A DNA stretch of 64,000 nucleotides, from contig JAFUQQ010000013.1 in the NCBI GenBank assembly GCA_017472285.1, forward strand, positions 8,527 to 72,526, given 5' to 3'. The position numbers and the translations under genes are program-made. Under the pieces are notes generated by a model that did not search any database, had not been told where the DNA came from, and was given only the letters and a program-made list of their open reading frames with translations. Shown piece by piece: positions 3,533 through 49,427 of this stretch (position 1 is the first letter of the stretch; every line of letters begins with the position of its first letter). Source of the stretch: Clostridia bacterium. GTDB lineage: Bacteria > Bacillota > Clostridia > Oscillospirales > CAG-272.

Positions 3533-3750
3533 TTTGGCTCACTCTTTCTTTTTTAAAACTTTCATTTTCTTGTATGTGAAGAAAATGCGGAAGGTGTTTC
3601 TCCGCTTTCTGATCTTATTTTTGACAGCTTCCCCTGTCCTTAATCAAACAAAAACAGAGAAACACCTTTCCTATACTCATAGTATTTCCTCAAATCCGAT
3701 TTTGATACAACGATATCATATCTCCGCCCAAATTCCTCAGAGTGCACAGT

Positions 3751-3823
3751 GAAAGTTTTGAAAGATTTTCAAGAAAACTTTTTCAAAAGTTTTCTTGAAG
3801 CAGGTATGGGCGGCAGCCCATCG
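3751..3823. repeat. REP-like palindromic repeat (AAGTTTTTGAAG family)
   Basis: Two hairpins (caagaaaacttt/aaagttttcttg; atgggc/gcccat); related copies at about 9005-9098, 18411-18450 and 59867-59902. Confidence 0.5.
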
Positions 3824-3835
3824 TAAGGCAGCCCG

Positions 3836-5086
3836 TCATAACGTATGCGCGATTTTCAGCAGGCGGTTGTATTTGGCAACGCGCTCACCGCGCGCGGGTG
3901 CGCCGGCTTTGAGATAGGGTGCGCCGACGGCAAGGGCGATATCAGAAATAAAGGTGTCGGCGGTTTCACCGGAACGGTGAGAAATGATGGGGGCATAGCC
4001 GTTTTGCTGCGCCAGATGGATGGTATCGAGGGTTTCCGTCAGTGTTCCGACTTGATTGGGCTTGATGAGGATCGCGTTGGCAAGGTCTTTTTCGATGCCT
4101 GCGGCAAGACGGGATGTGTTGGTCACGAAAAGATCGTCACCGACAAGAAGCGTTTTTTTGCCAAGTTTTTCTGTGATATATTTCCAGCCTTCTTCATCGT
4201 TTTCACCGAGCGGATCTTCGATGGAAAGGATGGGATAGCGTTCCAGATAACCGTCAAATTGCTCCGTTAGCTCTTTTGCCGAGCGTTTTATTTTGCGTTT
4301 GGGGAGCTGATATGCGTTTCCTTTTGCCCATTCGCTTGCGGCAACGTCAAGGGAAATTTTAACCGTTTCCGTATCATAACCTGCCGTGCGGATGGCTTCC
4401 AGAAGAAATTCTATGGCATCTTCATCGCTTTGCAGATTCGGCGCGAAACCGCCTTCGTCACCGACGGCAGAGGAAAGACCGCCGCGTTTCAGGAGACTGC
4501 CGAGCGTATGATAAATCTCACAGCCGATGCGTACCGCTTCCGCAAAAGAAGATGCGCCGACGGGGACGATCATAAATTCCTGAATATCGATATTGTTATC
4601 GGCATGACGGCCGCCGTTCAGGACGTTCATCATGGGACAGGGAAAGCGTTTTGCACCGTAAATACCGCCGAGATAGCGATAAAGGGGCATTTCATAGGCA
4701 TTTGCGGCGGCACGGGCGGCGGCAAGCGATACGGCAAGGATGGCATTTGCGCCGAGATTGTGTTTGTTTTTGCTTCCGTCAAGCTCGATGAGTTTTTCGT
4801 CGAGCTTTCTTTGTGCGCTTGCGTCAAAATTTCGGATGGCGGGAGAGATCGTTTCTTCGATATCACGGCAGACGGTTTGTGTGCCTTTTCCGAAATATCG
4901 CGCGGTGTCACCGTCGCGCCGTTCGTATGCTTCGCCTTCTCCTGTGGATGCGCCCGAGGGGACGGATGCCGTGCCGCACGCGCCGCCTTCCAGAGAAAGA
5001 TGTACGCTGACGGTTGGATTCCCGCGGGAATCGAGTGTTTCAAACGCGGTCACAGAGGTGATTTTTTTGCTTGTCATAGGCTTCAT
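3836..5086 (-). CDS. eno: Enolase (phosphopyruvate hydratase)
   Basis: LDSRGNPTV, VPSGASTG, NGGRHA, VGDEGGFAP, VGDDLFVTN, SHRSGET, KYNRLL motifs. Confidence 0.96.
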   Translation of the reverse strand: MKPMTSKKITSVTAFETLDSRGNPTVSVHLSLEGGACGTASVPSGASTGEGEAYERRDGDTARYFGKGTQTVCRDIEETISPAIRNFDASAQRKLDEKLIELDGSKNKHNLGANAILAVSLAAARAAANAYEMPLYRYLGGIYGAKRFPCPMMNVLNGGRHADNNIDIQEFMIVPVGASSFAEAVRIGCEIYHTLGSLLKRGGLSSAVGDEGGFAPNLQSDEDAIEFLLEAIRTAGYDTETVKISLDVAASEWAKGNAYQLPKRKIKRSAKELTEQFDGYLERYPILSIEDPLGENDEEGWKYITEKLGKKTLLVGDDLFVTNTSRLAAGIEKDLANAILIKPNQVGTLTETLDTIHLAQQNGYAPIISHRSGETADTFISDIALAVGAPYLKAGAPARGERVAKYNRLLKIAHTL

Positions 5087-5371
5087 ATCCTTTCTTTGAT
5101 CGTTTAAAACGTGATTGGACTTGCCTCTTTTGCATATTATGAATATAAAAACAGGGGGAACAACGAATCATAACTGTGAAAAGGGACAAAAAATTTTTAA
5201 AGACTTGATTTTTTTTTCAATCTGTGATATACTCATAAACAATTAAAGTGGCTATGTATAGCATTCAAAAAAATGCGTCGGATTATACTCTTTTTCACGA
5301 TTTTATTGTTGCTCCTGAACAAATTTTCGCCGTGTTTTTTGACTCAAGTGAAAAGAAAAGGAAGAAATTTT

Positions 5372-7347: not shown

Positions 7348-8748
7348 TTAAGATTGAGAAAGCTCATTGCCCGAAAATTGTCCCTCACTCCGAATATTGC
7401 CCGATTCGGCATCGTTATAGATATCCGCGAGGGTATCCCAGACGAGCGGACCTGTGATGCCATCAACATCCAGACCGAACAATGTTTCTGCGGCATAGAT
7501 CGCATCCCGTGTATCTTCATCATAAACACCTGTGATCGGCACGGGCGGTATCGCGGGATAGATGGAAGAAGCGACGTTGATAAATTCCTGTAATTGCACT
7601 ACGTCCTCTCCCGTATCGCCAAGCTGTAAGAATCTGCCCGGAAAAGGAATGATCGCCGTGCCGACCTGTTCGGGTGTCAGACTGCGGATATCGCCGAGAT
7701 AATCGTCATAGATGAGATTCCACGTTGCATCATCGACGATTCCCGTTTGCGGAAGTCCTGAAAATGCCTGAAATGCAATTACGGAATTTCTTGTCTGTTC
7801 ATCGTAAACACCGCTGTATACGGGTGCGGGGATTGCAGAATTGAAAAAAGAAATTGCCGTCAGAAAATATTGAATCACTTCCACGGATTCTCCCGTATCA
7901 CCAATCGCAAGTGTTCCGGGGAAAAATTTGGAAACGTCTTCAAGTCGAAGCCCTTCGCTTTCCAATTCGTTGAGTTTTTTGACGGCATTATATACGAATT
8001 GTATTTTATACCACGTTGCTTTTCCGACGATACCGTCTTCCGTCAGATTGAAGATATTCTGAAATTTTTTGACGGCATTTTCCGTTTCGATACCGAAAAA
8101 ACCATCCACGGGCAGAATTTTTGGGATTGCGGGATAATTGGCGGAGATACGGTTCAGACGCGATTGGATAAAGGCAACGTCATTGCCGACAGAACCGCGG
8201 CGAAGCAAAATTTCGGGCTGTGACGGTTGAATTTCCGCGATCGGTGCATTGGTAACGAGTGAAATATCATTGCCGTAAAAACGGGTCAGGATATCAAATG
8301 CGCCGAGACCTTGCTCCGCAAGCGGCACCGTTCCCCATTGGGAAAGTCCGTTGCAGGTCGTTGTCGTGCCGTTGCAATAGACCGCAAAAAGCGGCTCGAC
8401 ATTGCCGTTCCTGACGATATAATTATTGAAGATTTCATCCACGATCTTACTGATGTTTTCAAAAATATCCCTGCCGTTAACAAAAGATTGATCGATACCC
8501 GTATTGTTCGTGATATCAAAATCATAACCGAGGGAGGGATAATATTCCGTATAGATACGGTTGAGCGCAAAGGATATCTGCGCTAAAATATTGGCGCGCA
8601 AGGCACTTTCCGGCCATGTCGGAAAGATTTCGCTGGAAGCGACATTCTTTATGTAGTCTGGAAAAGAAACCGTGACGTTAGGCGCATTGCTGTCGGGCGC
8701 GCCGAGGTGGACGCGTATGGTTTCGGGAATGATCGGTAAATTTGGCAT
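7348..8748 (-). CDS. sleC: SleC-like spore cortex-lytic enzyme (catalytic region plus three PG-binding domains)
   Basis: IPETIRVHLG...DYIKNVASSEIFPTWPE...ALNRIYTEYY...YCNG...C.GLSQWG matches the clostridial SleC mature region; SD GAAGGAG. Confidence 0.85.
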   Translation of the reverse strand: MPNLPIIPETIRVHLGAPDSNAPNVTVSFPDYIKNVASSEIFPTWPESALRANILAQISFALNRIYTEYYPSLGYDFDITNNTGIDQSFVNGRDIFENISKIVDEIFNNYIVRNGNVEPLFAVYCNGTTTTCNGLSQWGTVPLAEQGLGAFDILTRFYGNDISLVTNAPIAEIQPSQPEILLRRGSVGNDVAFIQSRLNRISANYPAIPKILPVDGFFGIETENAVKKFQNIFNLTEDGIVGKATWYKIQFVYNAVKKLNELESEGLRLEDVSKFFPGTLAIGDTGESVEVIQYFLTAISFFNSAIPAPVYSGVYDEQTRNSVIAFQAFSGLPQTGIVDDATWNLIYDDYLGDIRSLTPEQVGTAIIPFPGRFLQLGDTGEDVVQLQEFINVASSIYPAIPPVPITGVYDEDTRDAIYAAETLFGLDVDGITGPLVWDTLADIYNDAESGNIRSEGQFSGNELSQS

Positions 8749-8760
8749 AAATACTCCTTC

Positions 8761-8809
8761 CCGCTTTTCTTTACGGAAAGAAAAGCTTGGCAAAAGAAAC
8801 GCTCTGTGG
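8761..8809 (-). repeat. Dispersed hairpin repeat (family A) fused to the sleC ribosome-binding site
   Basis: Reverse complement ccacagagcgtttcttttgccaagcttttctttccgtaaagaaaagcgg, nearly identical to 22851-22902 and 33089-33178. Confidence 0.85.
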
Positions 8810-8869
8810 TGGCACAGACTCTGTTTTGATGAGATTTTGGTATTTGGGAGTAAGTACTACGTACTCTAT

Positions 8870-8965
8870 GTGAAAAGAAAAAGCTCACTGTATTGCTTTA
8901 GCAATACAGTACGAAATGAAACGGCAGGCAGTGCCTGCACCCCTATGTTACCTCTGTTTTTATTT
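8870..8965 (-). repeat. Degenerate family A repeat (GGGGTGCAGGCACTGCCTGCC subtype)
   Basis: gaaacggcaggcagtgcctgcacccctatg..cctctgt is the reverse complement of the segments at 16501-16541 and 28278-28318. Confidence 0.75.
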
Positions 8966-9098
8966 TGAGGAGATTTTGGGGCATAGGTGTCGGGCGTTGC
9001 ACTGTTTTGATAAAATTTTTAAGGGAGGCGGCAACTTGCCGCTTTTTGCGGAGGGGCTTGGGGAGGTGCTTGAAACCAAGCATCTCCCCATCGTTCCC

Positions 9099-9518
9099 CT
9101 AAAGATTCGGTCTTTGCTCGTCGTTATGGATCACAACGTCGGAGGGCGGTTGCGAACCGTAAAGGGAATCGGGCAAGGGAATGAGGGGGACGGGCTGAAT
9201 GGACGTGATGCCGGGATAGATGGGGATATTCAGATTGACTGCACTGAAATAACCGTCGGCGGTGACTTCCGTTGTGATCTCGCTATACGGTTTCTTTCCG
9301 CCGGGAGATAGGGATTCGGAAACGGATGGGGTTGCGATCGATATCGGCTCGGTAATGCCGCTGTTATCCGTCGTAAAAATACCGAGCGTGCGGATGTGTC
9401 CGTTTTCATCTTCTGCGCGGACGATCACGCGCGCGCCTTCGATCGGAACAGCTCCCGATGCGGCGCTGACCTGTACGACGAGCTTTCCCGTGTTTTTATC
9501 ATTTTGTAAAGTATCCAT
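9099..9518 (-). CDS. Stand-alone SleC N-terminal pre/pro-domain-like protein
   Basis: GKLVVQV...PIEGARV...TDNSG.T....TP....SLSP...PYS...V.ADGY......I.IYPG resembles the N-terminal region of clostridial SleC. Confidence 0.7.
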   Translation of the reverse strand: MDTLQNDKNTGKLVVQVSAASGAVPIEGARVIVRAEDENGHIRTLGIFTTDNSGITEPISIATPSVSESLSPGGKKPYSEITTEVTADGYFSAVNLNIPIYPGITSIQPVPLIPLPDSLYGSQPPSDVVIHNDEQRPNL

Positions 9519-9647
9519 ACATATTCCTTTCTTCTTCTGATATGGAAGTGATAAGCCTTTCATAGTGATTCTATGCAAGGAGAATCACTTTTGCGAAGAA
9601 ATTTAAAAAATATTTGGATGATTTTTGAATAATTTTTGTAAATCCAC

Positions 9648-9677
9648 TTGACAGGAAACCCTTATTTGTAGTATAAT
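9648..9677 (+). promoter_or_regulatory. Sigma-A promoter of rpsU
   Basis: TTGACA-18 bp-TATAAT with an AT-rich upstream region. Confidence 0.75.
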
Positions 9678-9738
9678 AAACGTCGAGAAATTTTAAATTC
9701 TCTTTGCACTTTTTTTCATGCGGAGGGAGGGATCATGA

Positions 9739-9918
9739 ATGGCTGAAGTTAGAGTTAAAGAAAACGAATCGCTTGACAGCGCTCTTCGCAGATTTAAGAG
9801 ACAGTGCGCTCGCTCCGGAGTAATCGCTGAGGTTAAGAAGAGAGAGCACTACGAAAAACCGAGTGTTAAGCGTAAAAAGAAATCTGAAGCTGCAAGAAAG
9901 CGCAAATTCAAAAGCTAA
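9739..9918 (+). CDS. rpsU: 30S ribosomal protein S21 (not in the ORF track)
   Basis: Translated by hand: [59 protein letters not shown]; SD GGAGGG. Confidence 0.97.
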
Positions 9919-9947
9919 ATCGTAGCTGAACTTTGCAAAAACAACTT

Positions 9948-9980
9948 ACCCCACGAGGCGCACAGTTTCGTGGGGTTTTT
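9948..9980 (+). terminator. Terminator after rpsU
   Basis: accccacgag...ttcgtggggttttt. Confidence 0.7.
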
Positions 9981-10045
9981 GTTTGGAAATCGATTAACCT
10001 CACAAAATGAGGAAATACTATACATATATTTTTTAAGGATATCTT

Positions 10046-10564
10046 ATGGAAAAGAAAGCTTATCTTGAGATCGCAAAGATCATCAATACCCACGGCGTGC
10101 GCGGCGCGGTCAAGCTTGACCCTTGGTGCGACGGTCCGCAGGTATTCAAAAAATTAAAGCATCTTTATCTCGAAAACGGAAAAGAATTTGAGGTTTCCGA
10201 CGTGAAGACCGTTGGCGTGTTCGTCGTTTGTTCGCTTTCGGGTGTCACGACCGTGGAAGATGCCATCAAACTCAAAAATAAAATCCTCCTTGCAAAAAGA
10301 GAAGAAATTCCGCTTGCAAAAGGTTCGCATTTCATCTGCGATATGATCGGTCTTCCCGTCAAAGATGCGAATACGGGCGAGGTCTACGGAACGCTGGAAG
10401 CCGTTTCTCAGCCCGCTTTGCAGGAAATCTATGAGATCAGAACGCCAAGCGGCAAGCTCGTTCTCATGCCCGCCGTTCCGCAGTTTGTCGACCGTATTGA
10501 TACGGATGACGCGATCCATATCACCCCCATTGACGGCTTTTTCAGTGATGCCGAGGAAGCGTGA
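10046..10564 (+). CDS. rimM: 16S rRNA processing protein RimM
   Basis: IINTHGVRGAVK, PRC-barrel C-terminus, next to trmD. Confidence 0.92.
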   Translation: MEKKAYLEIAKIINTHGVRGAVKLDPWCDGPQVFKKLKHLYLENGKEFEVSDVKTVGVFVVCSLSGVTTVEDAIKLKNKILLAKREEIPLAKGSHFICDMIGLPVKDANTGEVYGTLEAVSQPALQEIYEIRTPSGKLVLMPAVPQFVDRIDTDDAIHITPIDGFFSDAEEA

Positions 10565-10572
10565 GGGCTGTC

Positions 10573-11295
10573 ATGCGTTTTGACATTATGACACTGTTTC
10601 CCGCGCTCGTGGATACCGTGCTTTCCGAAAGCATTATCGGCCGAGCGAGAAATGCGGGAATCATCGATATTCATGCGCATAATATCCGCGATTATTCCAA
10701 GGATAAGCACAGACGCGTGGACGATACGCCTTACGGCGGTGGCAAAGGGATGCTCATGAGCCCCGTGCCGATCTATGATTGCTATCTTGACGTGATCGAT
10801 CCCGAAAAAAATCCGTGCGAGCGCAGACGCGTGCTCTATATGTCCCCGCAAGGTGCGGTGCTGACACAGGCAAAAGCTAAGGAATTTTCGGAAAATTATG
10901 ATAATATCATCATCCTCTGCGGTCATTACGAGGGCGTTGACCAGCGTATCATTGACGAGATCGTTGACGAGGAGATCTCTATCGGCGATTACGTTTTGAC
11001 GGGCGGTGAGATTCCCGCCTGTATCGTCGTGGATGCCGTTTCCCGATTGCTTCCCGGTGTGCTTTCTGATGCGGAATGTTTTGAAAAGGAAAGCTTCTCG
11101 GATGAAACGCTTCTCGAATATCCTCAATACACAAGACCTTACGATTTCCGCGGCAGAACTGTTCCCGATGTGCTTCTGAGCGGACATCATGCCAATATCG
11201 AAAAATGGCGCGCCGAAAAAGCTCTCGAAAAAACGAAAGCCGCGCGTCCCGACCTGATCGAAAGACGTAACGAAATTTCCAAAGAAAGAGATTGA
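10573..11295 (+). CDS. trmD: tRNA (guanine-37-N1)-methyltransferase
   Basis: VDDTPYGGGKGM, MSPQG, LCGHYEGVDQR, SIGDYVLTGGE, EYPQYTRP. Confidence 0.97.
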   Translation: MRFDIMTLFPALVDTVLSESIIGRARNAGIIDIHAHNIRDYSKDKHRRVDDTPYGGGKGMLMSPVPIYDCYLDVIDPEKNPCERRRVLYMSPQGAVLTQAKAKEFSENYDNIIILCGHYEGVDQRIIDEIVDEEISIGDYVLTGGEIPACIVVDAVSRLLPGVLSDAECFEKESFSDETLLEYPQYTRPYDFRGRTVPDVLLSGHHANIEKWRAEKALEKTKAARPDLIERRNEISKERD

Positions 11296-11302
11296 ACACC
11301 AA

Positions 11303-12883
11303 ATGAAAAAACGCGATTTTTTCCGCAGTGCAGGCGCGACCGTTGCCGTCATGATCCTTGCGACCCTTCTTTCCAAAGCATTGGGACTCGTAAGACAAAT
11401 GATGACGGCTGCCATCTTTGCCGCAAGCATGGAAGGGATCGCGTTTTCTACTGCCTCCAGATTGCCGCTTGCGATCTTTGATATGCTGTTTTCCACGGCA
11501 GTCGTCGGCGCATTTCTGCCTATCTATAAAGGCAATCTTTCTTCCGACAAAGAAAGGGCAAAACGCTTCTCATCATCATTCCTGACGACCGTGACGCTCG
11601 TGACAGCCGCCGTTTCCTTGCTCGGTATTCTTTTTGCCGAACCGCTCATTGCGCTTTCCGCGCCCGATCTTGACGAAAAGACCGCTTCTCTTGCCGTTAC
11701 GCTTCTGCGTATCATGTTTCCTTCCATGATCTTCGCAGGAGCGGCATATACGCTCGTTGGCATCCTTCAATCGCATGAAAGCTTTATTTTGCCCGCTCTC
11801 GTCAGCGCGATCTCCAATCTCGTTATGATTGTTTATCTGCTTTTCTGCAAAACTCCCGTGGATCAGACTGCGGCAATTGGCTTTGCTTTTGCATATCTTA
11901 TTTCATGGCTGGCGCAATTTCTGACGCTTGCCGTTCCGCTTTTCCGAAAAGGCTTTTTGCCTTCTCCGACGGCACGGCTGAACGATCCCGATACGATGCT
12001 TGCTTTGCGCCGTTCTCTGCCCGTGATGTTTGGTTCATGGCTTATTCCGATGATTACGCTTGCCGCGGGTGCGTTTTCTTCCTTTATTCCCGGCGGTGTC
12101 ATAGAAAACGGCGCGCAGACGGGGGCGGCGATCGTCGTTTACGAAAATGCTTTTTCTGTTTTTTCCATCGCGGCGGGACTTCTGACTTACGGGGTCTGTA
12201 ATTATATCTTCCCGAAGCTTTCCGCGCGCGCAGCAAACAAGGATGGAGAGGGATTCTCCCGGTTGATACAGAACGGACTTTTTGCTTCAGCTGCCTTAAT
12301 TTTGCCGATCACGATATTCGTTTTTTTACTTTCGGATGAGATTGTCACGCTTTTATATATGCGTGGTGCATTCTCGGCGGGACTTGCCGCGGCGGCAGGG
12401 AAAAGTCTGCGGATGCTTTCTCTTGCGATGCCGGCTTACGGGATCATCGAATTGCTCTCCCGTGTCTGTTATTCCGACGGAAAAGTGCGGCTCCCGATGC
12501 TATCTTCCTTTTGCGGTATTGCTTCGGCTTTGACGGCATTTTTTATCTTCCGTCTGACCGATATGCTCTCCGTGGAAACGGTCGCGCTTTCGGTCGCAAT
12601 CGGTCTTTCCGCGGCGGCGCTTACGCTTTATATCCTTTGTGCGCGCTTTTTCACGGATATGCATAAAGGAATGTGCTTTTCAAAATATATCCTTTTACTG
12701 ACGGGATGTGCGGTGAGTGGTGTCGTGATGTTTTTTTCTAAGCTATTTTTGGAACATTTTTTGAATTTTTCGGGTGCTTTTCAAAATTTTATCACAATAG
12801 CTATTGTCTTTATAACGGGTTTTATGGTATATTTAATATGGTTGATTATGACAAAGATCATCAATGCGGAAATGTTCCGCTGA
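11303..12883 (+). CDS. murJ: MurJ/MviN family lipid II or polysaccharide flippase
   Basis: Polytopic membrane protein; LLSKALGLVRQ, LYMRGAF motifs. Confidence 0.8.
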   Translation: MKKRDFFRSAGATVAVMILATLLSKALGLVRQMMTAAIFAASMEGIAFSTASRLPLAIFDMLFSTAVVGAFLPIYKGNLSSDKERAKRFSSSFLTTVTLVTAAVSLLGILFAEPLIALSAPDLDEKTASLAVTLLRIMFPSMIFAGAAYTLVGILQSHESFILPALVSAISNLVMIVYLLFCKTPVDQTAAIGFAFAYLISWLAQFLTLAVPLFRKGFLPSPTARLNDPDTMLALRRSLPVMFGSWLIPMITLAAGAFSSFIPGGVIENGAQTGAAIVVYENAFSVFSIAAGLLTYGVCNYIFPKLSARAANKDGEGFSRLIQNGLFASAALILPITIFVFLLSDEIVTLLYMRGAFSAGLAAAAGKSLRMLSLAMPAYGIIELLSRVCYSDGKVRLPMLSSFCGIASALTAFFIFRLTDMLSVETVALSVAIGLSAAALTLYILCARFFTDMHKGMCFSKYILLLTGCAVSGVVMFFSKLFLEHFLNFSGAFQNFITIAIVFITGFMVYLIWLIMTKIINAEMFR

Positions 12884-12910
12884 AACTATTCTCGGAAAGG
12901 GGGAAAGGTC

Positions 12911-14815
12911 TTGTCTTTCAATAAGAAAAAATTTTCTCGGTCGGGATTGTTCAGAAATTCCGTTCTGATCTATTATCTGACGAAATTTTCCGGATGGGTC
13001 TACCGTGGGTTTCTTTCCGGGATCTTCGGTTGGCTGCTCACTTCTTACGATTTCTTTGAAAAAGGATTTTCCGAGTCATTGATCGTCACAAAACTGAAAC
13101 TGATATCCGAACACAAGGTTTTTGGTTTCGCGAAGACTTGTAAGCGGTTTATTGCCAGACATTATGAAAGAAGCTTCTTTCTGAATCTTGTGAAAGGGAC
13201 GAAGCAAAGGATACTGACGGCGCGTGTCAATACCTTCGGTCTTTTCTTTTTCTCATACGGCTTCTATCTCGTTCTGATCCAGCTCATCAAACAATACGTC
13301 ATGGAAATGCAAACGACTGTGCCACACGCGATCTATATCGGCGGCGGCTGTATGGTCGGCGGCTTTTTCATGCTTTGTTCCAGAAAGAACGTCGCAAGGG
13401 CCATCTGGGACAGCCGTTTTCTTTGCGCAATCCTCTTTGATTTCCTCTCTCTCAGCAGTCTTGAGGTCGCGGAGGCGGCAACGGGTGAAGCCCATAAAGG
13501 CTTCAATATTCCGTTCCTTGGCGGTATGGCGTTCGGTATCCTTTCAATCTTTATCGATCCGCTTCTCATCATTCGCGTACTTCTTGTCCTCATGTTCCTT
13601 TCGATGATCTTTTCCTCGCCCGAATCGGGAATCGTTATGATTATGCTGGCTTTGCCGTTCCTTGAAACGATGACGCTTGCGGGGGTACTCTGTCTGATTT
13701 TCATTTCCTATGCATTGAAATGGCTTTGCGGCAGACGCACGTTTCATGTCCGCTTCGTAGATTTCTTTGTGATCGCCTTTATGATTTTCGTCTTTTTTGG
13801 CGGAATTTTCACGATCGATGGCTCCAGCTTCCAAAAGATGCTCCTTTTCCTTTGTTTTATTTCGGGGTATTTCACCGTGAAAAACCTGATCGCATCGCCT
13901 TCTCTTGTTAGGAGCTGTCTGTATGCGCTCGTGATTTCAGCCGCTGCCGTTGCGCTTTACGGGATTTATCAGAATTATTTCGGAACGCTCTCAACGGTAT
14001 GGCAGGATACTTCCGTTTTCACGGAGATCAAGGGTCGTGTCATTTCTACATTTGAAAATCCGAACGTCCTCGGAGAATATTTGATCCTCGTCATCCCCAT
14101 CACAATCGCTTTGATGGCAAGTACGGAAAATGCGCTTGGCAGATTCGGTCTTTTTGCCGCCGTTGCCGCAGAATGTGCTTGTCTCGTCTTTACTTGGTCG
14201 CGCGGTGCATGGATCGGTTTTGCGATTGCAACGGTGATCTTCCTTTGCGTTTCCAGCAAATATTTCATGACAGCGGGACTTCTTTCCATTCCTGTCATCG
14301 CGACATTTGCCGTTTTCAAGATCGATTCTTCCATTATCCGAAGGATCACGAGCTTCGGCGACAGCTCCACATCTTACCGTCTGGATATCTGGGAAGGTGT
14401 GCTGCGTATGCTGGAGGATATCGGTATTTACGGTATCGGTATCGGAGAAGGCGCGTTCAGAAAATTATATCCCGTATATTCTCTCGCGGAGATCGAAGCC
14501 GCACCGCATAGCCATAATCTTTATCTTCAGATCTCTGTGGAGACCGGATTTTTCTCGCTCATCGTCTTTTTGCTTTTCATTTGCGCATTCACTCAGTGTT
14601 CCCTTAGCTTTTGCAAAAGCGCGGTCAACCGCTCCAATCGCTTGATTGCACTTGGTATTTTCTGCGGTGTGCTTGCGTTTTTGATTCAAGGTCTGACGGA
14701 TTACGTCTGGTATAATAACCGTATCTTCCTTTTATTTTGGCTGATTACGGGGCTCGGTATGGCGCACGTCATTACCGCGAAAGATACGTATGAGGAATCC
14801 GCGCAATACCATTAA
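12911..14815 (+). CDS. O-antigen ligase (Wzy_C) family membrane protein
   Basis: RVISTFENPNVLGEYL, FTWSRGAW, YRLDIW, GIGIGEG.F, HSHNLYLQ. Confidence 0.85.
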   Translation: MSFNKKKFSRSGLFRNSVLIYYLTKFSGWVYRGFLSGIFGWLLTSYDFFEKGFSESLIVTKLKLISEHKVFGFAKTCKRFIARHYERSFFLNLVKGTKQRILTARVNTFGLFFFSYGFYLVLIQLIKQYVMEMQTTVPHAIYIGGGCMVGGFFMLCSRKNVARAIWDSRFLCAILFDFLSLSSLEVAEAATGEAHKGFNIPFLGGMAFGILSIFIDPLLIIRVLLVLMFLSMIFSSPESGIVMIMLALPFLETMTLAGVLCLIFISYALKWLCGRRTFHVRFVDFFVIAFMIFVFFGGIFTIDGSSFQKMLLFLCFISGYFTVKNLIASPSLVRSCLYALVISAAAVALYGIYQNYFGTLSTVWQDTSVFTEIKGRVISTFENPNVLGEYLILVIPITIALMASTENALGRFGLFAAVAAECACLVFTWSRGAWIGFAIATVIFLCVSSKYFMTAGLLSIPVIATFAVFKIDSSIIRRITSFGDSSTSYRLDIWEGVLRMLEDIGIYGIGIGEGAFRKLYPVYSLAEIEAAPHSHNLYLQISVETGFFSLIVFLLFICAFTQCSLSFCKSAVNRSNRLIALGIFCGVLAFLIQGLTDYVWYNNRIFLLFWLITGLGMAHVITAKDTYEESAQYH

Positions 14816-14922
14816 AGGCAGCGAATCCATTTTCGTAAAAATTTCCGTTTGCCGTCGGCGGCGGCAACATTCGTTAAAAATAAAAACAAAAATAAAAAAC
14901 CGTCGGGAAAAGAGTTATATTT

Positions 14923-15432
14923 ATGCTTCAGCAAAGAAAAAAAGCGCGATTCAATCTGGTTGATGCGCTGATTATCATTTTTATCCTTGCCGTGATCGCG
15001 GTGGCTGCATATCTTCTTTTGAGTGTGCTTCGTCAGCCCCGCACGGTCAGCAACAGCGGTCAGATCGAATTTGACGTTCGTATCTCCAACGTTGACGAAT
15101 CCTGTCTTTCTTTGATTAAAAACGGCGATACGGTCAAGGATTCCGTAACGGGTGCTGTGCTCGGAACGATCGTAGATGTGCAAACCGAAAAAGCACAGTA
15201 TTATGGTACGGTCGCTGTGGAAGAAGACGGTGTAATTACCGTTCCCACAACGGATTATACCGATAAATACGACGTATACGTTAAAATCACTGCCAACGCG
15301 GAAAAAGATGAACGAGGTATCCATACCGTTGCGGGTACAAGAATCGTCATCGGTTCCACCGTTTATTTCAAAGTCCCTTCGTTCACCTCCATTTCTTATA
15401 TTACGGAATTTTCAACGAGAACACCCGGCTGA
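14923..15432 (+). CDS. DUF4330-like membrane-anchored protein
   Basis: FNLVDALIIIFILAV N-terminal anchor typical of DUF4330. Confidence 0.7.
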   Translation: MLQQRKKARFNLVDALIIIFILAVIAVAAYLLLSVLRQPRTVSNSGQIEFDVRISNVDESCLSLIKNGDTVKDSVTGAVLGTIVDVQTEKAQYYGTVAVEEDGVITVPTTDYTDKYDVYVKITANAEKDERGIHTVAGTRIVIGSTVYFKVPSFTSISYITEFSTRTPG

Positions 15433-15459
15433 CAGCCTTTTTCAGAAAGGAAATAACAT

Positions 15460-15939
15460 ATGCAAACGAAACAGAAAACAGGTCCGAGATTCAATATATT
15501 TGACGTGCTGATCATTCTTGCGGTCATTTCCTGTATCGCGGCGATCGTTGTCAAAGTATTCTTTATTGAAGAAGTACAAGCGGATCTCAATAACGCAGAG
15601 ATCACTTTCATTGTCGAAAATGTATCTGAAGGTACGGCGGAAGCATTTTGTGTGCCGGATAGACAGATCTATCTTCAGGATGATGATACGCAGATCGGTA
15701 CCCTTCAGAGTGCATCGTATTCCGCACAGAAACTGCTTGTGGAAGATGCAGGCGGTAAGCTCGTCGAGGCTGACCATCCTACCAAAAAACAGATACAGGG
15801 GGTCGCTTCCATGAGCGGTTATTGGAGCGAAGATGGCTTCCTGATTGGCGGTACACATCTCGCGACGGTCGGCAGTACCTTCAAAATTTATACGAAGGAC
15901 GTTGCTTGTACGATCAAGATCGTCGGTATTGCTGAATGA
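15460..15939 (+). CDS. DUF4330-like membrane-anchored protein (paralog)
   Basis: FNIFDVLIILAVI anchor; same length and layout as the previous gene. Confidence 0.7.
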   Translation: MQTKQKTGPRFNIFDVLIILAVISCIAAIVVKVFFIEEVQADLNNAEITFIVENVSEGTAEAFCVPDRQIYLQDDDTQIGTLQSASYSAQKLLVEDAGGKLVEADHPTKKQIQGVASMSGYWSEDGFLIGGTHLATVGSTFKIYTKDVACTIKIVGIAE

Positions 15940-16117
15940 ATTTGGGAAAGTCTGCCTTTTTTGAAAGAAATTTTTCAAAAAAATCACGGATATTCATAAT
16001 TTTTTAAAAAAAACTATTGATTTTACGGATAATCATTGATATAATAATTATTAATTGATAGTTCAAACATTGATTGTTTTGACAAGCAGTAAAATTGAAA
16101 CAGGAGTATGATTAACA

Positions 16118-16375
16118 ATGATTTCCAGAGATATAACCATCAAAAACAGCGTAGGTCTTTACGCAAGACCCGCAACCTTTTTTATTCAGAAGGCTAACTC
16201 CTATAAAAGCTCCATTTGGATCGAAAAGGACGACCGCCGTGTCAATGCAAAGAGCCTTCTCGGTGTTCTTTCCTTGGCGATCGCAGGCGGCACTACCATC
16301 ACGCTCGTTGCAGACGGTCCCGATGAAGCAGAAGCACTCAGCGGCATCGAAGAACTCGTAAGCAAAGAAATCTGA
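16118..16375 (+). CDS. HPr family phosphocarrier protein (His15 replaced by Tyr)
   Basis: GLYARPA in place of GLHARPA; NAKSLLGVLSL regulatory Ser motif. Confidence 0.85.
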   Translation: MISRDITIKNSVGLYARPATFFIQKANSYKSSIWIEKDDRRVNAKSLLGVLSLAIAGGTTITLVADGPDEAEALSGIEELVSKEI

Positions 16376-16396
16376 GCGTAAAATAGTTAACCGATA

Positions 16397-16429
16397 ACGA
16401 CAGGAGCAGAGTGCTTCTGTCGTTTTTTT
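16397..16429 (+). terminator. Terminator after the HPr gene
   Basis: acgacaggagca-gag-tgcttctgtcgttttttt. Confidence 0.75.
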
Positions 16430-16500: not shown

Positions 16501-16576
16501 GACAGAGGTGCCATAGGGGTGCAGGCACTGCCTGCCGTTTCTTTTGCTTACTTTTTCTTTTCGTAGAGAAAAGCGG
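16501..16576 (+). repeat. Family A repeat fused to the uvrC ribosome-binding site
   Basis: gacagagg..cataggggtgcaggcactgcctgccgtttcttttgcttactttttcttttcgtagagaaaagcgg then GGAGG and ATG. Confidence 0.85.
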
Positions 16577-16585
16577 GGAGGTATT

Positions 16586-19498: not shown

Positions 19499-19499
19499 G

Positions 19500-22758: not shown

Positions 22759-22902
22759 GCAAAGAAGAAACGGCAGGCTGTGCCTGCAACCATCTGTTAC
22801 AGACAGCATATCCAAAATAAAAATCGAAACGAAATAACAAGAAAACGCACCAACAGAGCGTTTCTTTTTGCCAAGCTTTTTCTTTACGTAAAGAAAAAGC
22901 GG
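22748..22902. repeat. Inverted pair of family A repeats between uvrB and uvrA
   Basis: Partial minus copy (agaaacggcaggctgtgcctgca) at the uvrB stop; full plus copy 22851-22902 running into SD GAAGGAG of uvrA. Confidence 0.8.
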
Positions 22903-25768: not shown

Positions 25769-25893
25769 GGTTTTCTCATCTTTTTCTTTGTTTGAAAGAA
25801 AAAGATGCAAAAAGAAGCAAACGAACTTTCAGTTCGATCGCACAGTCAACACAAGTGTTGACCGTTAGACTTTGCGGATCCGCAAAGTCTAAC
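25769..25893. repeat. Family A variant repeat followed by stacked palindromes
   Basis: 25769-25841 is nearly the reverse complement of 49355-49427; followed by gtcaacac/gtgttgac and gttagactttgcgg/ccgcaaagtctaac hairpins. Confidence 0.75.
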
Positions 25894-33088: not shown

Positions 33089-33178
33089 CCGCTTTTCTTT
33101 GGAAAAAGAAAAGCTTGGCAAAAGAAACCCCGCCTTTCTTTACAGAAAGAAAGGCTTGGCGAAAGAAACGCTCTGTGG
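33089..33178 (-). repeat. Two tandem family A repeats fused to the ATPase ribosome-binding site
   Basis: ccgcttttctttggaaaaagaaaagcttggcaaaagaaac and ccgcctttctttacagaaagaaaggcttggcgaaagaaacgctctgtgg. Confidence 0.85.
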
Positions 33179-33279
33179 TTCCTCTACCTTTATTTTGATA
33201 AGATTTTTAATGGTGGTATGTTCGTTTTTATTCGTAGTATCTTGGTTTAGCTAAAACTTTACAAAAAGTAATGATTTTC

Positions 33280-45270: not shown

Positions 45271-46635
45271 ATGGAATTGATGAAACGAGAACTTTTGAAT
45301 TATGATATTTTCCCGAAGGTTATTCCCGTTGGTAAAGAAACCGAGATCACCGTAAAACCCCTCGGCGGTCATGCGGCATTCGCAAAAAACAAGGAACATA
45401 CCATTGCCATCCATACCACAACGGAAGGCAATCCCACGACCTATCCAAACCGTAAAAATTATGCGGAATATAAAATGACGGTCGGGGACGACGGCTGTTT
45501 CCATATCGTTCATACCTTTGAAAAGGAATGTGAATATTATATCCGTATCATCGCGGATGACAAACGTATCGTTCAGCTTTCCGTTTATGCGGTACTTGAT
45601 GATCTTGTCGGCAGATATCCTTATATCGGTGATATGCATATGCATTCCACCCGTTCGGATGGCAAGGAACATCCTTTTATCGTTGCGGCAAATTACCGTA
45701 AAGTCGGTTATGACTTTATGGCGATCACCGATCACAGAAAATATTATCCTTCTCTTGAAACCAAGCGTTTCTATGAACCGCTCGGTCTTGACGTGAAATT
45801 TTATCCTGGTGAAGAAATCCATCTCCCCGGAAACGATATCCATATCGTGAATTTCGGCGGTGATTACAGTATCAACGGACTTCTCGATTGTTCTCTCCAA
45901 TATATCAATAAAGGAGCTGACCCTGAATGGCGTTCCATCACGGGCATCTGTCCCGATGTGATGACGGAAGAACAGTACCGCGCGGAAGTAAATGCCCTTG
46001 CAGAAACGCTCGATATTCCCGATAACGTGGAAAAATTCCCGTATGCTGCTTGTGTCTGGATTTGCAATCACATCAAAAAAGCAAACGGTCTCGGTATTTT
46101 CGCGCATCCGTATTGGATCAGCAACGTATATCAGGTTCCCGAAGATTTTACCGATCATATGTTTAAGACACATCCTTTCGATGCGTTTGAAATTTTCGGT
46201 GGTCTGACCTATTTCCAGCAGAACGGTTATCAGGTACAGAAATATCATGATTATCGTGCGCAAGGTATTCAAGTGCCGATTGTCGGCAATACCGATACCC
46301 ATGGTTCAACGGCATATAACGCCGATTGGCATTCCGCACGTTCGATGGTTCTTGCGTATGCCAATACCCGCGATGAGATCGTCGGTGCAGTCAAGAGCTT
46401 CTATAACGTTGCCATTCAGGATATCAAAAATCACGTGGAAGTTCTCGGTACGCTCCGCATGATGAAATACTGCTGGTTCCTCTACGAACATTATCTTCCC
46501 ATTCACGATGAGCTTTGTTTTGAAGAAGGTCGTTTGATGAAAGAATATGCTTGCGGCGATACCGAAGCGGGTGAAGATCTCCGCCGTATCTCCGGCAGAA
46601 TGGATAAGCTCCGCCGTAAATATTTTGCGTTCTGA
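45271..46635 (+). CDS. PHP-domain metallohydrolase
   Basis: GDMHMHSTRSDG, AITDH, PGEE, AHPYW, GNTDTH. Confidence 0.8.
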   Translation: MELMKRELLNYDIFPKVIPVGKETEITVKPLGGHAAFAKNKEHTIAIHTTTEGNPTTYPNRKNYAEYKMTVGDDGCFHIVHTFEKECEYYIRIIADDKRIVQLSVYAVLDDLVGRYPYIGDMHMHSTRSDGKEHPFIVAANYRKVGYDFMAITDHRKYYPSLETKRFYEPLGLDVKFYPGEEIHLPGNDIHIVNFGGDYSINGLLDCSLQYINKGADPEWRSITGICPDVMTEEQYRAEVNALAETLDIPDNVEKFPYAACVWICNHIKKANGLGIFAHPYWISNVYQVPEDFTDHMFKTHPFDAFEIFGGLTYFQQNGYQVQKYHDYRAQGIQVPIVGNTDTHGSTAYNADWHSARSMVLAYANTRDEIVGAVKSFYNVAIQDIKNHVEVLGTLRMMKYCWFLYEHYLPIHDELCFEEGRLMKEYACGDTEAGEDLRRISGRMDKLRRKYFAF

Positions 46636-46698
46636 TCTTCTTTTCTTGAACGCCGGGGAAAAGAATCAAAAGAAAACGCAAGCGCAACGCGCTTGACC
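46636..46698 (-). repeat. Family A variant repeat
   Basis: ttcttttctt...ggaaaagaa-tcaaaagaaaacgc-aagcg.aa.cgcgcttgacc, similar to 49094-49160. Confidence 0.6.
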
Positions 46699-46703
46699 TC
46701 AAT

Positions 46704-46738
46704 AAAGAAAACCCTCGCAACAGCGAGGGTTTTCTTTA
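46704..46738. terminator. Bidirectional terminator
   Basis: aaagaaaaccctcgc-aaca-gcgagggttttcttt. Confidence 0.85.
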
Positions 46739-46747
46739 TGATGCAGA

Positions 46748-49039
46748 TCAATCTTTTTTGCCGATCTTAACTTCAACTTTGAGTGTTTTGCCTGCGATGG
46801 GCGCGATGATATTGCCATCGATCACATTGCCGTCAACCTTGATCTCGAGGACGTCTGTACCTGTGCCGTCACCCTTGAAGGTGATATCAAATGTGCAATC
46901 GCGCATGACTTTCACGATGCTACATTCATTCCAGCAAAGCGGCAGACAAGGATCGATGCGCAGACCTTCGATTTCGGGATGCATACCGAAGATAAATTCC
47001 ACAACGCTCTTGAGCATCCAGGAGCTGGAAGCAGTACGCCAGCTCTGACCGGGTGTACCTGCACGGTAGCCAACTTCGGGAGCGAAATAGGAGTTATACA
47101 TTGCGTAAGGTTCACCACAGGTCTGACCGATTGTGCCGTCATCATAGGTCTGATCCCAAGGAAGCATCTTGCGAAGACCTTCTTCCACGCGGTCGGGACG
47201 GCGGAGGATACTGTCAACAGCGAGCTTCCAAGCAGAAGGATGGAGGTAGATACCGCCGTTATCCTGTACGCCGGGGAATTTTTCAGCCATGGAACCGATA
47301 TAAGGACGCTGATAGGAATATGCGGGATAGGAAAGACGGATACCGATGGGCGTTTCGAGGAGTTCTTCTGCTTTATCCATCACAGCAGCACCTTTTTCCA
47401 TGCCTGCAAGAACTGCCCACATCTGCGGATTCAGGAAGATCTGACCTTCATCGCAATCGGAGGAGCCCATGATGATATCATCGTCGGTACGCGCGTAAAT
47501 GTAGTAGCCGCCCTTTTCGTCATAACCGTAAGCATCGATCTTCTTTGTCATATCGTCAACGCGTTCGAGTGCGAGCTTCGCATCGTCTTCTTTGCCGAGC
47601 ATTCTTGCGACTTCTGCAAACATCTTGCCCGCTCTGACCCAAGCGATGGAAAGCCATACGGAAACGCCTTTGCCTTTCAGACCTGCATTGTTGATACAGT
47701 CGTTCCAGTCACCGCCCCAGATACGTACAAGACCGTAATTACCTTGGAAATTATAAAGGAAATCGACGGAACGTCTGATATGTTCATAAACGGAATATTC
47801 TTCTTCTGTATCGTTGAATTTGACGGTTTCATAAAGCAAAGAAGGATCGCCAAGCTCTTTGATGATGGTGTTGACCGCGTAAGTCATCCAAACGGTATTA
47901 TCTGCGAAATTATTATCTTTGATTCTACCGTCAGCGATCGTACGAGGTGCATAACCGCTCTGATACTGATAAGAAAGAACGCGTTTCATTCTTTCCCAAG
48001 CGAGCTTCGGATTGACACAAGCCAGACATTCCGTGTCACTTGTCATGTCACGGTAGCCGTTATGACGAACACGCGCCCAACGGGAACCCATATGTGCTGC
48101 GTATTTCATCCAGCCGTTGATGAGATGGTCGAAATCTTTCCAAGGTGTTTTAATAGAAACACCGCTGAGGTCTGCCGCATATTTTGCTGTCATTGCCGCG
48201 AAATCTGCTTCGACACCTTCTGCTGTGGGAGATGTGATTTCATCAAAATTGTCCATAGCAATGCCGAGCTGATAATGAACGGTCTTTGTTTCGCCGGGAG
48301 CGAGCGTTACGGTATTCTGCAAAGCAAGACAAAGTTTTTCGGAGTTACAATCGGTATTGGTGCAGCCGCCGTTCTTACGGAGTGCTACGGGATGCTGTTC
48401 ATCACCGAAAGGACCGATGAATGCGTTGCGTCTGGAATCGAAACCTGTGATCTCCTCGGAGGATGTCATATAGCAATAGATCTTGCGATTGGTCTTGGAC
48501 CAAAGAGGACGGTAATCTTTTGCATAGACGGCTTTCTTTTCTTCGTTGAAGCCGCCCTGACCGAGGCTATAACATTGCGGACGGTATGTGCCGTCAACTT
48601 CTGTCTTTGCGTAAGAAACGAGATTCAGTGTACGAGTGGTATCGCCGTTATTGGTGATCGTTACACTCCAAAGCTCGCGTCTGCCTTCGTTGGGAACGAA
48701 AATACGGACGGTGCTTGTGATATCCTTATAAGAAAGGGTGATCGTGCTGAAGCCTGTCGCATGGTTGCAAGCATAATCCGTATAACCGTAATCGAGAGGA
48801 AGTCCGAAAAGGCTCCAATAAGCGTTATCTTCCGCAAGGAAAATATTTCTGTTGGAAAGAAGAAGGATTCTTCTGCCGAGGTCGTCCTGACAAAGACCTT
48901 CGCCAAAGCCAACCTGAGATGTGAAACTTACATATTCATTGTTGAACATGTAATTATACCAATGACGGGGCGTTTCCGGCTCCGTAATGGTATACGAATC
49001 GTCTGCGTTAAAGTGTCCGTACCATTTGAATTCTGCCAT
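46748..49039 (-). CDS. Glycoside phosphorylase, GH94 family
   Basis: TPRHWYNY, GYRD, GDWND catalytic motif, GVSVW, NGGIY.H, GLRIDPCLP..W. Confidence 0.88.
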   Translation of the reverse strand: MAEFKWYGHFNADDSYTITEPETPRHWYNYMFNNEYVSFTSQVGFGEGLCQDDLGRRILLLSNRNIFLAEDNAYWSLFGLPLDYGYTDYACNHATGFSTITLSYKDITSTVRIFVPNEGRRELWSVTITNNGDTTRTLNLVSYAKTEVDGTYRPQCYSLGQGGFNEEKKAVYAKDYRPLWSKTNRKIYCYMTSSEEITGFDSRRNAFIGPFGDEQHPVALRKNGGCTNTDCNSEKLCLALQNTVTLAPGETKTVHYQLGIAMDNFDEITSPTAEGVEADFAAMTAKYAADLSGVSIKTPWKDFDHLINGWMKYAAHMGSRWARVRHNGYRDMTSDTECLACVNPKLAWERMKRVLSYQYQSGYAPRTIADGRIKDNNFADNTVWMTYAVNTIIKELGDPSLLYETVKFNDTEEEYSVYEHIRRSVDFLYNFQGNYGLVRIWGGDWNDCINNAGLKGKGVSVWLSIAWVRAGKMFAEVARMLGKEDDAKLALERVDDMTKKIDAYGYDEKGGYYIYARTDDDIIMGSSDCDEGQIFLNPQMWAVLAGMEKGAAVMDKAEELLETPIGIRLSYPAYSYQRPYIGSMAEKFPGVQDNGGIYLHPSAWKLAVDSILRRPDRVEEGLRKMLPWDQTYDDGTIGQTCGEPYAMYNSYFAPEVGYRAGTPGQSWRTASSSWMLKSVVEFIFGMHPEIEGLRIDPCLPLCWNECSIVKVMRDCTFDITFKGDGTGTDVLEIKVDGNVIDGNIIAPIAGKTLKVEVKIGKKD

Positions 49040-49093
49040 AGCAATAACCAAACCTTTCTGATAAATATTTATATTTAATTTTGTTTTTGATTT

Positions 49094-49427
49094 TGTTTTT
49101 GATGTACTTTTCTTGTGTAAAGAAAAGTACCAAAAGATACACAAGCGTTCCGCTTGACCGAGGGTGCCGATTTTTAAAGTTTTATTATTTGAGTCTGCAC
49201 ACGGTAGTCATAAGTGCGGGAAGGGAAAGAAAAGAAATCTTTGCCAAAATAAAGTGCGCGTTCTTCAAGTTCGCAAAACATTTACCGCCATGCGCCTATC
49301 AGGCGGAAAGTAGCCTGATATGAAGCATGGTGACTCCGTAACAAATCTGCACCCGCGATCGAACTGCAAGTTCGTCTGCTTCTTTTTGCAACTTTTTCTT
49401 TCAGACAAAGAAAAAGTTGAGAAACCC
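49094..49427. repeat. REPIN/BIME-like element: two inverted family A arms around a spacer of about 170 bp
   Basis: Left arm (49094-49172) and reverse-complemented right arm (49343-49427) share the layout hairpin-CAAAA(A)GA-small hairpin-GA.CG.GGGTGC.GATTT. Confidence 0.7.

Follow-up and report, generated by a model that had tools for sequence, protein, structure and literature searches.

A mosaic intergenic repeat with the layout of an intrastrand triplex abuts Shine–Dalgarno sites in gut Clostridia

Repeat units at the locus

The stretch analysed here (the window) comprises 64,000 nucleotides (nt) of contig JAFUQQ010000013.1 from an uncultured Clostridia bacterium. It carries uvrB, uvrA and uvrC among its genes, together with dispersed copies of a short hairpin repeat that the original prediction, made from the letters alone, had described as a modular family running at its 3′ end into ribosome-binding sites. 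A genome-wide search, a tabulation of start codons and an analysis of covariation all agree with that description. The family is real and abundant, and its sequence marks it as a pyrimidine-motif version, anchored at Shine–Dalgarno (SD) sites, of the known intrastrand-triplex kind of repeat.

Read 5′ to 3′, a unit consists of a first tract (Y1; TTTC and a T-run), a short linker, a second tract (Y2), a loop of 4–5 nt and a purine tract (R1). Y2 and R1 are the 5′ arm and the purine 3′ arm of the hairpin, Y1 lies inside 'GTTTCTTTTG', and the linker is the 5′ strand of an outer stem of 4–7 bp. The conserved block extends from an A-rich box about 36 nt 5′ of CACAGAGC through GCGG. The 5′ part is interchangeable, being CACAGAGC, a GCAGGC..GCCTGC hairpin or a CGAAC..GTTCG hairpin; a GC hairpin of the GCAGGC or CGAAC type is missing from the commonest subfamily.

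Each predicted site in the window was read by coordinate, which gave five full units, a sixth unit whose 3′ arm is imperfect, two subfamily units, three degenerate copies and two mosaic fragments (Table 1). Dispersed copies are thus present where they had been listed, although two of the listed sites, 'about 8870' and 'about 22748', hold mosaic fragments that include the 5′ module without the family hairpin. Two exact copies of the core CTTTTCTTT-loop-AAAGAAAAG are found in the window, and none in 100 shuffles; when up to one mismatch is allowed, GTTTCTTTTG is found 21 times, where shuffles averaged 9.4 and never exceeded 17. For the five cases in which GCGG had been said to continue into the SD at 9–12 nt, the measured distances are 12, 9, 12, 11 and 9 nt. 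Pfam searches on the genes behind these five units identified a PG_binding_1 protein (called sleC in the prediction), UvrC, UvrA and a BrxC/D-like ATPase (PF10923, DUF2791), and left open reading frame (ORF) 28365 unassigned.

Table 1. Copies and fragments of the repeat in the window (positions are those of the window; distances run from GCGG to the start codon)
Position	Strand	Feature	Gene context
3544..3590	+	Degenerate copy: pyrimidine tract, hairpin CATTTTCTT/AAGAAAATG, GCGG	
8761..8840	-	Composite: A-rich box, CAGAG..CACAGAGC 5′ module and full unit 8761-8800 (Y1 TTTCTTTT, linker, Y2, loop CCGT, R1 AAAGAAAAG, GCGG)	12 nt to ATG (8748), PG_binding_1 gene
8872..8979	-	Mosaic piece without triplex unit: GCAGGC..GCCTGC 5′ module, degenerate first tract, unrelated 10-bp hairpin, orphan pyrimidine tract	
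16501..16576	+	Composite: GCAGGC..GCCTGC 5′ hairpin and unit 16537-16576 with imperfect 3′ arm	9 nt to uvrC ATG (16586)
22759..22806	-	Partial unit: 5′ hairpin module and first tract TTTCTTCTTT, no hairpin	Begins right behind uvrB stop codon
22848..22902	+	Full unit 22860-22902, 5-T/5-A variant	12 nt to uvrA ATG (22915)
25777..25840	-	Subfamily unit (25777-25822): CGAAC..GTTCG 5′ hairpin, GTTTG, first tract, linker, 13-bp hairpin, loop CAAAC	No adjoining start codon
28263..28353	+	Composite: A-rich box, GCAGGC..GCCTGC hairpin and AAAGAAAGG-variant unit 28314-28353	11 nt to ATG 28365
33089..33208	-	Composite of two tandem units: 33130-33169 (AAAGAAAGG variant, matching first tract TTTCTTTC) and 33089-33128	9 nt to ATG 33079, PF10923 ATPase
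46636..46697	-	Degenerate copy: own 5′ hairpin, long loop, matching TTTTCTT first tract	
49104..49140	-	Degenerate copy: hairpin GTACTTTTCTT/AAGAAAAGTAC	Same subfamily found after mnmE in congener G004
49356..49419	+	Subfamily unit (49374-49419), kin of 25777-25840: GTCTG upstream, loop CAGAC	No adjoining start codon

Three tracts vary in concert

The original prediction had treated the 5′ GTTTCTTTTG module as an interchangeable flank. The 5′ part is indeed modular, but GTTTCTTTTG itself supplies a third strand, the mirror image of the hairpin arm, and this strand changes together with the arm, as seen both in the match of run lengths and with a family-blind detector. Y1 is a mirror image of Y2 and not a copy of it; laid parallel to R1, it places a T over each A and a C over each G. 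In 91 of the 102 units with a recognisable first tract, Y1 has a T-run exactly as long as the A-run of R1; 10,000 permutations gave such a match in 34.5 units on average and in 52 at most. Matched Y1/R1 variants in the source genome, labelled G000, are 4T/4A, 5T/5A, 6T/6A, TTTC/AAAG and TTCTTT/AAGAAA. Together with TTTTC/AAAAG, TTTTTC/AAAAAG and CTTTC/GAAAG in regions from 12 genomes and TTTCTC/AAAGAG in a congener, at least ten matched variants are known overall. Watson–Crick pairing of Y1 with R1 gives 7 bp at any run length and therefore does not explain the run-length match.

The family-blind detector accepts any hairpin that has a purine arm and 8 bp or more, provided that a parallel-matching tract, with at most one mismatch, lies 1–12 nt upstream. 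It found 66 Hoogsteen-pyrimidine-purine layouts and one in the reverse order in G000, and none of either in a mononucleotide-shuffled genome. Linkers are mostly 4–5 nt long and reach 14 nt. Loci from other genomes carry the mirror strand in 91 of 188 strand hits, where the hairpin is counted on both strands and Y1 is possible on one only; the tracts are nearly mirror-symmetric, so that a mirror-versus-direct-copy control on these loci cannot discriminate. The compensatory changes in the hairpin stem quoted in the original prediction were all found. Among 25 aligned units, 92.7% of cells pair, compared with 80.6% after shuffling, and 6 of 12 pairs are altered on both sides.

We know of no protein-binding symmetry that takes the form of a mirror repeat, and of no structural reason for one other than a triple helix or H-DNA, established background that Holder et al. 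2015 (PMC4666352) summarise. In the sections that define them, the same authors sort intrastrand-triplex repeats into four classes and describe the corresponding sequences (ITxF) as three consecutive purine/pyrimidine blocks on one strand; the stems measure 6–15 nt, the loops are short, and no more than one mismatch is allowed. The 66 units likewise have three blocks on one strand, with stems of 8–11 nt, at most one Hoogsteen mismatch and loops of 3–7 nt, and they are in excess over the shuffled genome (66 versus 0). Judged by its sequence, the three-tract layout is that of an intrastrand triplex of the pyrimidine motif, 'class IV' of Holder et al. 2015, which the same sections give as a minor class with 4% of the motifs surveyed.

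Copy number and mosaic organisation

The source genome is 2.60 Mb in size, in 77 contigs, with 44% G+C and 96.5% completeness. An nhmmer search seeded with 52 copies returned 111 matches, and a structural scan gave 206 strand hits, corresponding to 103 palindromic hairpins whose purine arm measures 8 nt or more. Where units cluster they form direct tandem repeats and do not alternate in orientation, for example at 33089-33169 in the window and at G000:C75:89459-89820. The latter array holds four units with a period of ~94 nt, and a congener locus (L020 / L245) holds four or five with a period of ~80 nt. In the consensus, the two ends of the repeat are not inverted copies of each other. No target-site duplication was visible at three sites compared with congeners, relatives too distant to give base-exact borders.

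At least two other hairpin repeat families, GAAAACTTT..AAAGTTTTC with TTGAA flanks and GGGGAGGTGC..GCACCTCCCC, are found in the window (3766-3800 and 9049-9098) and throughout the genome, and the CAGAG..CACAG 5′ module precedes many of their genomic copies as well. Because this module is common to several hairpin families, the intergenic regions are mosaics in which modules have been shuffled between families. A further conserved module of ~60 nt precedes CGAAC..GTTCG units in 13 of 124 regex hits (49280-49355 in the window and 12 other copies); it contains an 8-bp hairpin, TATCAGGC..GCCTGATA, and the motif GATATGAAGC, and has no Rfam match.

A transposase of the Y1/RAYT type had been put forward as the mobiliser. 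This part of the prediction was not supported: no PF01797 match was found in G000 (96.5% complete), in G126, which has 41 pattern copies, or in G099, although all three carry units. PF01797 matches are present in three low-copy genomes (G150, G029 and G205). TnpB (PF07282) was absent from the five genomes searched. As a candidate mobiliser, IS110 (PF01548) was rejected, being present in G000 and missing from G126, G150, G029 and G002. An ordinary REP/BIME hairpin repeat moved by a RAYT, with the mirrored first tract as a hitch-hiking flank, would fit the ~100 copies per genome, the modular mosaic composites, the tandem units and the lack of coding capacity. We nevertheless regard this explanation as very improbable, since PF01797 is missing from the three unit-carrying genomes and since the first tract tracks the purine arm over at least ten variants in several genomes, which hitch-hiking does not predict.

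Placement at start and stop codons

Genome-wide, the copies are not random with respect to start codons. A start codon opening an ORF of at least 80 amino acids lies within 25 nt of R1 in 48 of 91 oriented units, with a peak at 11–18 nt, compared with 21% for random positions. An SD-like motif accompanies 39 of these 48, and 12 apparent antisense starts lie inside the element and are without an SD. When an SD is required, sense starts are found at 0–24 nt in 40 of 91 units and within 300 nt in 62 of 91, and the corresponding antisense counts are 0 and 17. About 40% of oriented units thus stand in the sense direction directly 5′ of a native SD.

In a smaller subfamily, with the outer stem CTTAC/GTAAG, seven copies lie at 0 nt from the TAA stop of a convergently oriented gene. 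In the two cases checked, with MnmE and PheT-like C-termini, the C-terminus is native and the unit begins exactly behind the stop codon. Start-adjoining and stop-adjoining contexts both recur in other species. At the mnmE stop the congeners G008 and G004 (loci L208 and L211) carry a different pyrimidine/purine hairpin directly behind the stop codon, and G004 carries a unit of the 49104-49140 subfamily in addition, so that one site holds different subfamilies depending on the species.

The units could also be transcription terminators or attenuators, a GC-rich hairpin being followed by a T-rich first tract in two subfamilies. A consensus scan does flag such structures, namely GCAGGC..GCCTGC with the first tract at 16521, 22787(-) and 28298, and CGAAC..GTTCG at 25836(-). 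This explanation is hardly credible: the commonest subfamily is without the GC hairpin, units lie upstream of starts and also inside operons that are tight in congeners, and the covariation of three tracts is left unaccounted for.

Gain, loss and spread among relatives

Comparison with congeners revealed that copies have been inserted, relative to these genomes, directly at gene boundaries. The uvrB-uvrA spacer is 156 nt long in G000 and contains a reversed partial unit after the stop codon and a full unit before the SD. In 15/15 congeners this spacer is without a unit, 13 of them having a plain spacer (~10 to ~110 nt) and two having other repeats. The regions upstream of uvrC and of the PG_binding_1 gene are without a unit in 5/5 congeners, and the PG_binding_1 upstream junction measures 15 nt in one congener versus a 350-nt repeat mosaic in G000. 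These unit-free orthologous spacers bear out the gain and loss of a REP-like, mobile type that had been anticipated. ORF 28365 was left out of the upstream comparison, its best congener matches having 39–46% identity and lying in different contexts. At all three sites the unit-free congeners retain a purine-rich SD core (AAGGAG/GGAGG). Because the SD core is shared, the unit must abut a native SD and does not replace it; the earlier suggestion that the repeat 'supplies translation starts' is therefore right only in part, since no whole new SD is brought in.

A 16-mer spanning the 5′ module and Y1, CACAGAGCGTTTCTTT, has 69 copies in G000 and 0–1 in each of 40 relatives. The species-specific burst that this seemed to indicate was overturned by a covariance model built from 25 units, which found the unit, with the same core sequence, in 14/15 congeners (3–121 matches per congener at E <= 0.01, with only 150 candidates scored in each genome, so that the counts are not comparable). 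Only the 5′ module is specific to G000. Matches to a pattern for the 4T form were found in 13 of the 201 genomes searched within the order, with 62 copies in G000 and 41 in G126, a member of another family; a reversed control pattern gave one match in all.

An exact 24-mer was located at 45 loci in ~25 named Clostridia assemblies, including that of the cultured Butyricicoccus porcorum BB10; one of these loci is a chance coding match and one is without the 3′ arm. The 24-mer had no exact match in viral contigs. Metagenome contigs around uvrA (79 loci, 1.04 Mb) contained no triplex-type unit, the best relative among them having 87% amino-acid identity and none being conspecific. A unit precedes the same gene across species in four sets of loci (L034/L055/L056, L016/L054, L021/L044 and L043/L049), from which it follows that some positions have been kept across speciation. 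One such gene, which starts with LADISISG, has a unit before it in three genomes of the Butyricicoccus type. GC-rich hairpins around the same-gene loci of named assemblies show compensatory changes. The repeat family is therefore old, widespread but patchy, and variable in its sites.

A possible third strand, in RNA or in DNA

We tentatively favour, with a little less than even confidence, a reading in which the repeat is a mosaic, gene-less intergenic element with triplex-capable units and in which, in SD-adjoining transcripts, the third strand would be clamped onto its own hairpin, rendering the insertion harmless. Y2 and R1 would form a Watson–Crick hairpin, and Y1 would lie parallel to R1 in the major groove, making U.A-U (or T.A-T) and C+.G-C triples. 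Sense-locked copies would be transcribed within the 5′ untranslated region (UTR). There the triple helix would hold the U-rich Y1, which when free would wobble-pair with the SD, on its own hairpin; the SD would thus be left free and insertion at ribosome-binding sites tolerated. The compact 5′ block could also shield the message from 5′-to-3′ decay. The geometry is plausible, Y1 being joined by 1–2 nt to the outer stem of 4–7 bp, since a short loop can bridge the deep groove, as is the rule in pseudoknots.

The placement of Y1 on the SD could instead be the function of the element. According to such an explanation, the unit would be a vertically inherited SD-masking RNA switch of the fourU thermometer or riboswitch type, OFF with Y1 on the SD and ON with Y1 on the hairpin. 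RNAfold minimum free energy (MFE) structures are compatible with it, and they bear equally on the masking by an unclamped Y1 that our favoured reading supposes: in 39 of 42 SD-adjoining units Y1 pairs with the SD spacer, enclosing the hairpin in a Y1-SD helix, and the uvrA leader folds at -22.7 kcal/mol (z = -3.9). The presence of a unit before the same gene in several species (L034, L055, L056) also agrees with vertical inheritance. However, the downstream genes have no function in common (uvrA, uvrC, PG_binding_1 and the BrxC/D-like ATPase), orthologous leaders are without the unit in 15/15 and 5/5 congeners, many units are far from any start codon, and a shuffled Y1 masks the SD just as well (6.0 versus 6.1 nt paired, same MFE). 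We consider such a switch quite improbable, and Y1 as a sequence-specific anti-SD was rejected on the last of these results.

In another explanation the fold is selected only in single-stranded DNA, during replication, repair or spread, in the manner proposed for BoxC/PIT/TMECO, the transcript being passive and SD adjacency reflecting an insertion site preference, for instance for purine-rich tracts such as the SD, together with tolerance. We rate this as rather unlikely, though as a contender to be taken seriously. The layout is the same as in the DNA intrastrand-triplex repeats of Holder et al. 2015, as their class descriptions give it (PMC4666352), and on the complementary strand the tracts follow the purine-motif order (class II) that BoxC shows. 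R1 also resembles the native purine run that precedes the SD in congeners, which would suit a microhomology-mediated insertion. DNA is favoured by the BoxC-like order of the complementary strand, by the stop-adjoining subfamily, which is antisense to its neighbour gene, and by the 37 of 91 units without a nearby start codon. RNA is favoured by the sense lock at SD sites, where 39 SD-adjoining units are in sense and no real one is antisense; by the pyrimidine-motif order, which according to the same descriptions can form in RNA as well (PMC4666352); and by the isolated stem mismatches on the sense strand, among which T:G outnumbers C:A by 19 to 6 in 136 regex-defined units. This last excess hints, weakly, at selection at the level of RNA. 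A consensus scan found no sigma-70-like promoter in sense orientation within the units of 15900-33400 or in the upstream A-rich module; one sigma-70-like match (33195-33222) overlaps the composite at 33089..33208 and is antisense.

Several observations weigh against the clamped third strand that we favour. The four variable Y1/R1 column pairs include two with T-A to C-G double changes, the others having only T-A or a terminal G opposite G, and these four columns score higher when the partner is slid by +1 (92.3% versus 79.5% of cells), in a count that accepts G-U and hence is not specific to the Hoogsteen register. For this reason the triplex claim rests on the run-length test and not on the count of column pairs. 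G000 itself has only ~5 independent tract variants, in copies that share descent, which means that independence is overstated by the permutation figures. In 58 of 91 units the three nucleotides ahead of Y1 are complementary to the final 3 nt of the loop (permutation mean 29.4, maximum 43), and one subfamily displays a clean double change, GTCTG/CAGAC versus GTTTG/CAAAC. Pairing of this kind cannot fit sterically with a closed loop of 4–5 nt and a full triplex; the complementarity is not retained in Butyricicoccus copies. The equal pairing of a shuffled Y1 with the SD also counts here. Moreover, the mirror symmetry of the unit is equally that of a purine-motif triplex (A.A-T, G.G-C) on the complementary DNA strand, and covariation cannot separate RNA from single-stranded DNA. 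Finally, roughly every second unit does not adjoin a start codon, 37 of 91 having none within 60 nt, and a strand-specific insertion mechanism could yield the orientation lock.

A bolder version of the RNA reading is unlikely in our view. Here the transcribed sense-locked units in ~40 5′ UTRs per genome would form a ligand-free RNA triple helix of 8–10 U.A-U/C+.G-C triples in succession, and the third strand would toggle between clamping the hairpin, with the SD free, and wobble-pairing with the SD, which would then be masked.

Comparison with known repeats and triple helices

A match to a described Rfam family, for which the original prediction had allowed, was not found on well-formed or partial units, either at the gathering score or at E <= 1. 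The sole overlap consists of sub-threshold Leu_leader hits at 46614-46776, over a degenerate copy and the neighbouring terminator. A full-text literature search returned no description of this repeat family.

No function has been assigned to intrastrand-triplex repeats of the BoxC/PIT/TMECO kind since they became known in the 1990s. They occur in E. coli and other Proteobacteria (Hoyne et al. 2000, as treated in the relevant sections of PMC4666352). Like the repeat described here, they are short, multi-copy, gene-less and intergenic, and consist of three purine or pyrimidine blocks on one strand that could form a triplex by folding back two times. In both, copy number varies sharply between relatives, and neither has a known function or mobiliser. 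As those sections describe it, BoxC is G/C-rich, belongs to class II (pyrimidine-purine-purine) and forms in DNA only, whereas the present repeat is A/T-rich (TTTCTTTT / AAAGAAAA) and of class IV on the sense strand, and has an outer Watson–Crick stem, interchangeable 5′ modules and a sense lock at SD sites. The BoxC/TMECO consensus given there (CCCTCNCCC, N3-6, GGGNGAGGG, N3, GGGNGAGGG; PMC4666352) is not followed by our units.

The placement recalls the Neisseria REP2 and Borrelia IR repeats, which, in the account of Delihas 2011 (PMC3184786) as far as it concerns them, are dispersed, contain internal hairpins and lie directly upstream of ORFs in the 5′ UTR or ribosome-binding region. REP2 is 120–150 bp long and brings its own promoter, ribosome-binding site and ATG according to that account (PMC3184786), whereas the repeat here is ~40–55 nt long, abuts a native SD, has no sigma-70-like promoter in the consensus scan and has triplex symmetry. 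REP/BIME elements with RAYT, as presented in the pertinent parts of Nunvar et al. 2010 (PMC2817692), share the high-copy palindromic intergenic units and the mosaic clusters. In BIME clusters the units are in alternating orientation (PMC2817692); the repeat here is distinguished by direct tandems, a third mirrored strand, placement 5′ of genes and the absence of a RAYT gene.

Among RNA triple helices, those of MALAT1 and the PAN ENE offer a likeness in composition: a U.A-U run broken by C+.G-C, as in MALAT1, is sequence-compatible with the unit. These helices, known from eukaryotes and viruses, guard the 3′ end of an RNA against exonucleases, the A-rich tail being clamped by an internal loop rich in U, whereas the unit here is a single strand folding back 5′ of a bacterial SD. 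The H-type pseudoknot riboswitches SAM-II, SAM-V and preQ1-II also have a pyrimidine third strand in the major groove, by or including the ribosome-binding site. Those riboswitches are single-copy, ligand-binding and gene-specific, in contrast to the present repeat, which is dispersed before unrelated genes and has no Rfam match. In the sections of a 2026 review that list them (PMC13541005), prokaryotic RNA triple helices comprise only riboswitches and group II introns.

Other features of the window and consequences for assembly

A cobalamin riboswitch (RF00174) was found at 57274-57424 (-), scoring 40.1 bits where the gathering threshold is 31.5; its place is between genes 55971-56777(-) and 57236-57889(+) and reads toward the minus-strand genes at lower coordinates. 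In the series of minus-strand genes at 29735-37264, the PF10923 BrxC/D-like ATPase is accompanied by an unassigned ORF of 650 amino acids, a glycosyl hydrolase 2 and a TerB_N/TerB_C protein; the last of these and the ATPase may belong to a defence locus. Upstream of uvrC, a small plus-strand ORF (16118-16375) and a terminator-like hairpin (16396-16424) are kept in 5/5 congeners, and the overlapping minus-strand ORF 16112-16474 is probably spurious.

The repeats limit assembly by breaking contigs at their ends, and they breed false ORF calls, such as that at 16112-16474 and GTG starts within the element. Over 8501-28500 of the window, for which four DNA runs were available, the contigs of two likely source read runs stop at repeats and leave gaps at ~16270-16518 and ~22859-22936; two low-share runs gave short pieces only, none bridging a unit. 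Several contigs of the genome begin or finish in units.

Implications

What is new in this repeat is a fold possible in both RNA and DNA, with copies that, in uncultured gut Clostridia, are pinned in sense to the SD sites of dozens of genes unrelated to one another, together with comparative evidence for selection on the three-stranded fold itself. If the units do form a ligand-free triple helix in transcripts, this would make them the first family of long MALAT1/ENE-like triple helices among bacteria. One triple requires protonated cytosine, which would then make translation or 5′-to-3′ decay of many unrelated genes responsive to pH, Mg2+ or temperature. Leaders with and without the unit coexist in one genus, and a cultured carrier can be named (Butyricicoccus porcorum BB10), which makes the function of the repeat testable.

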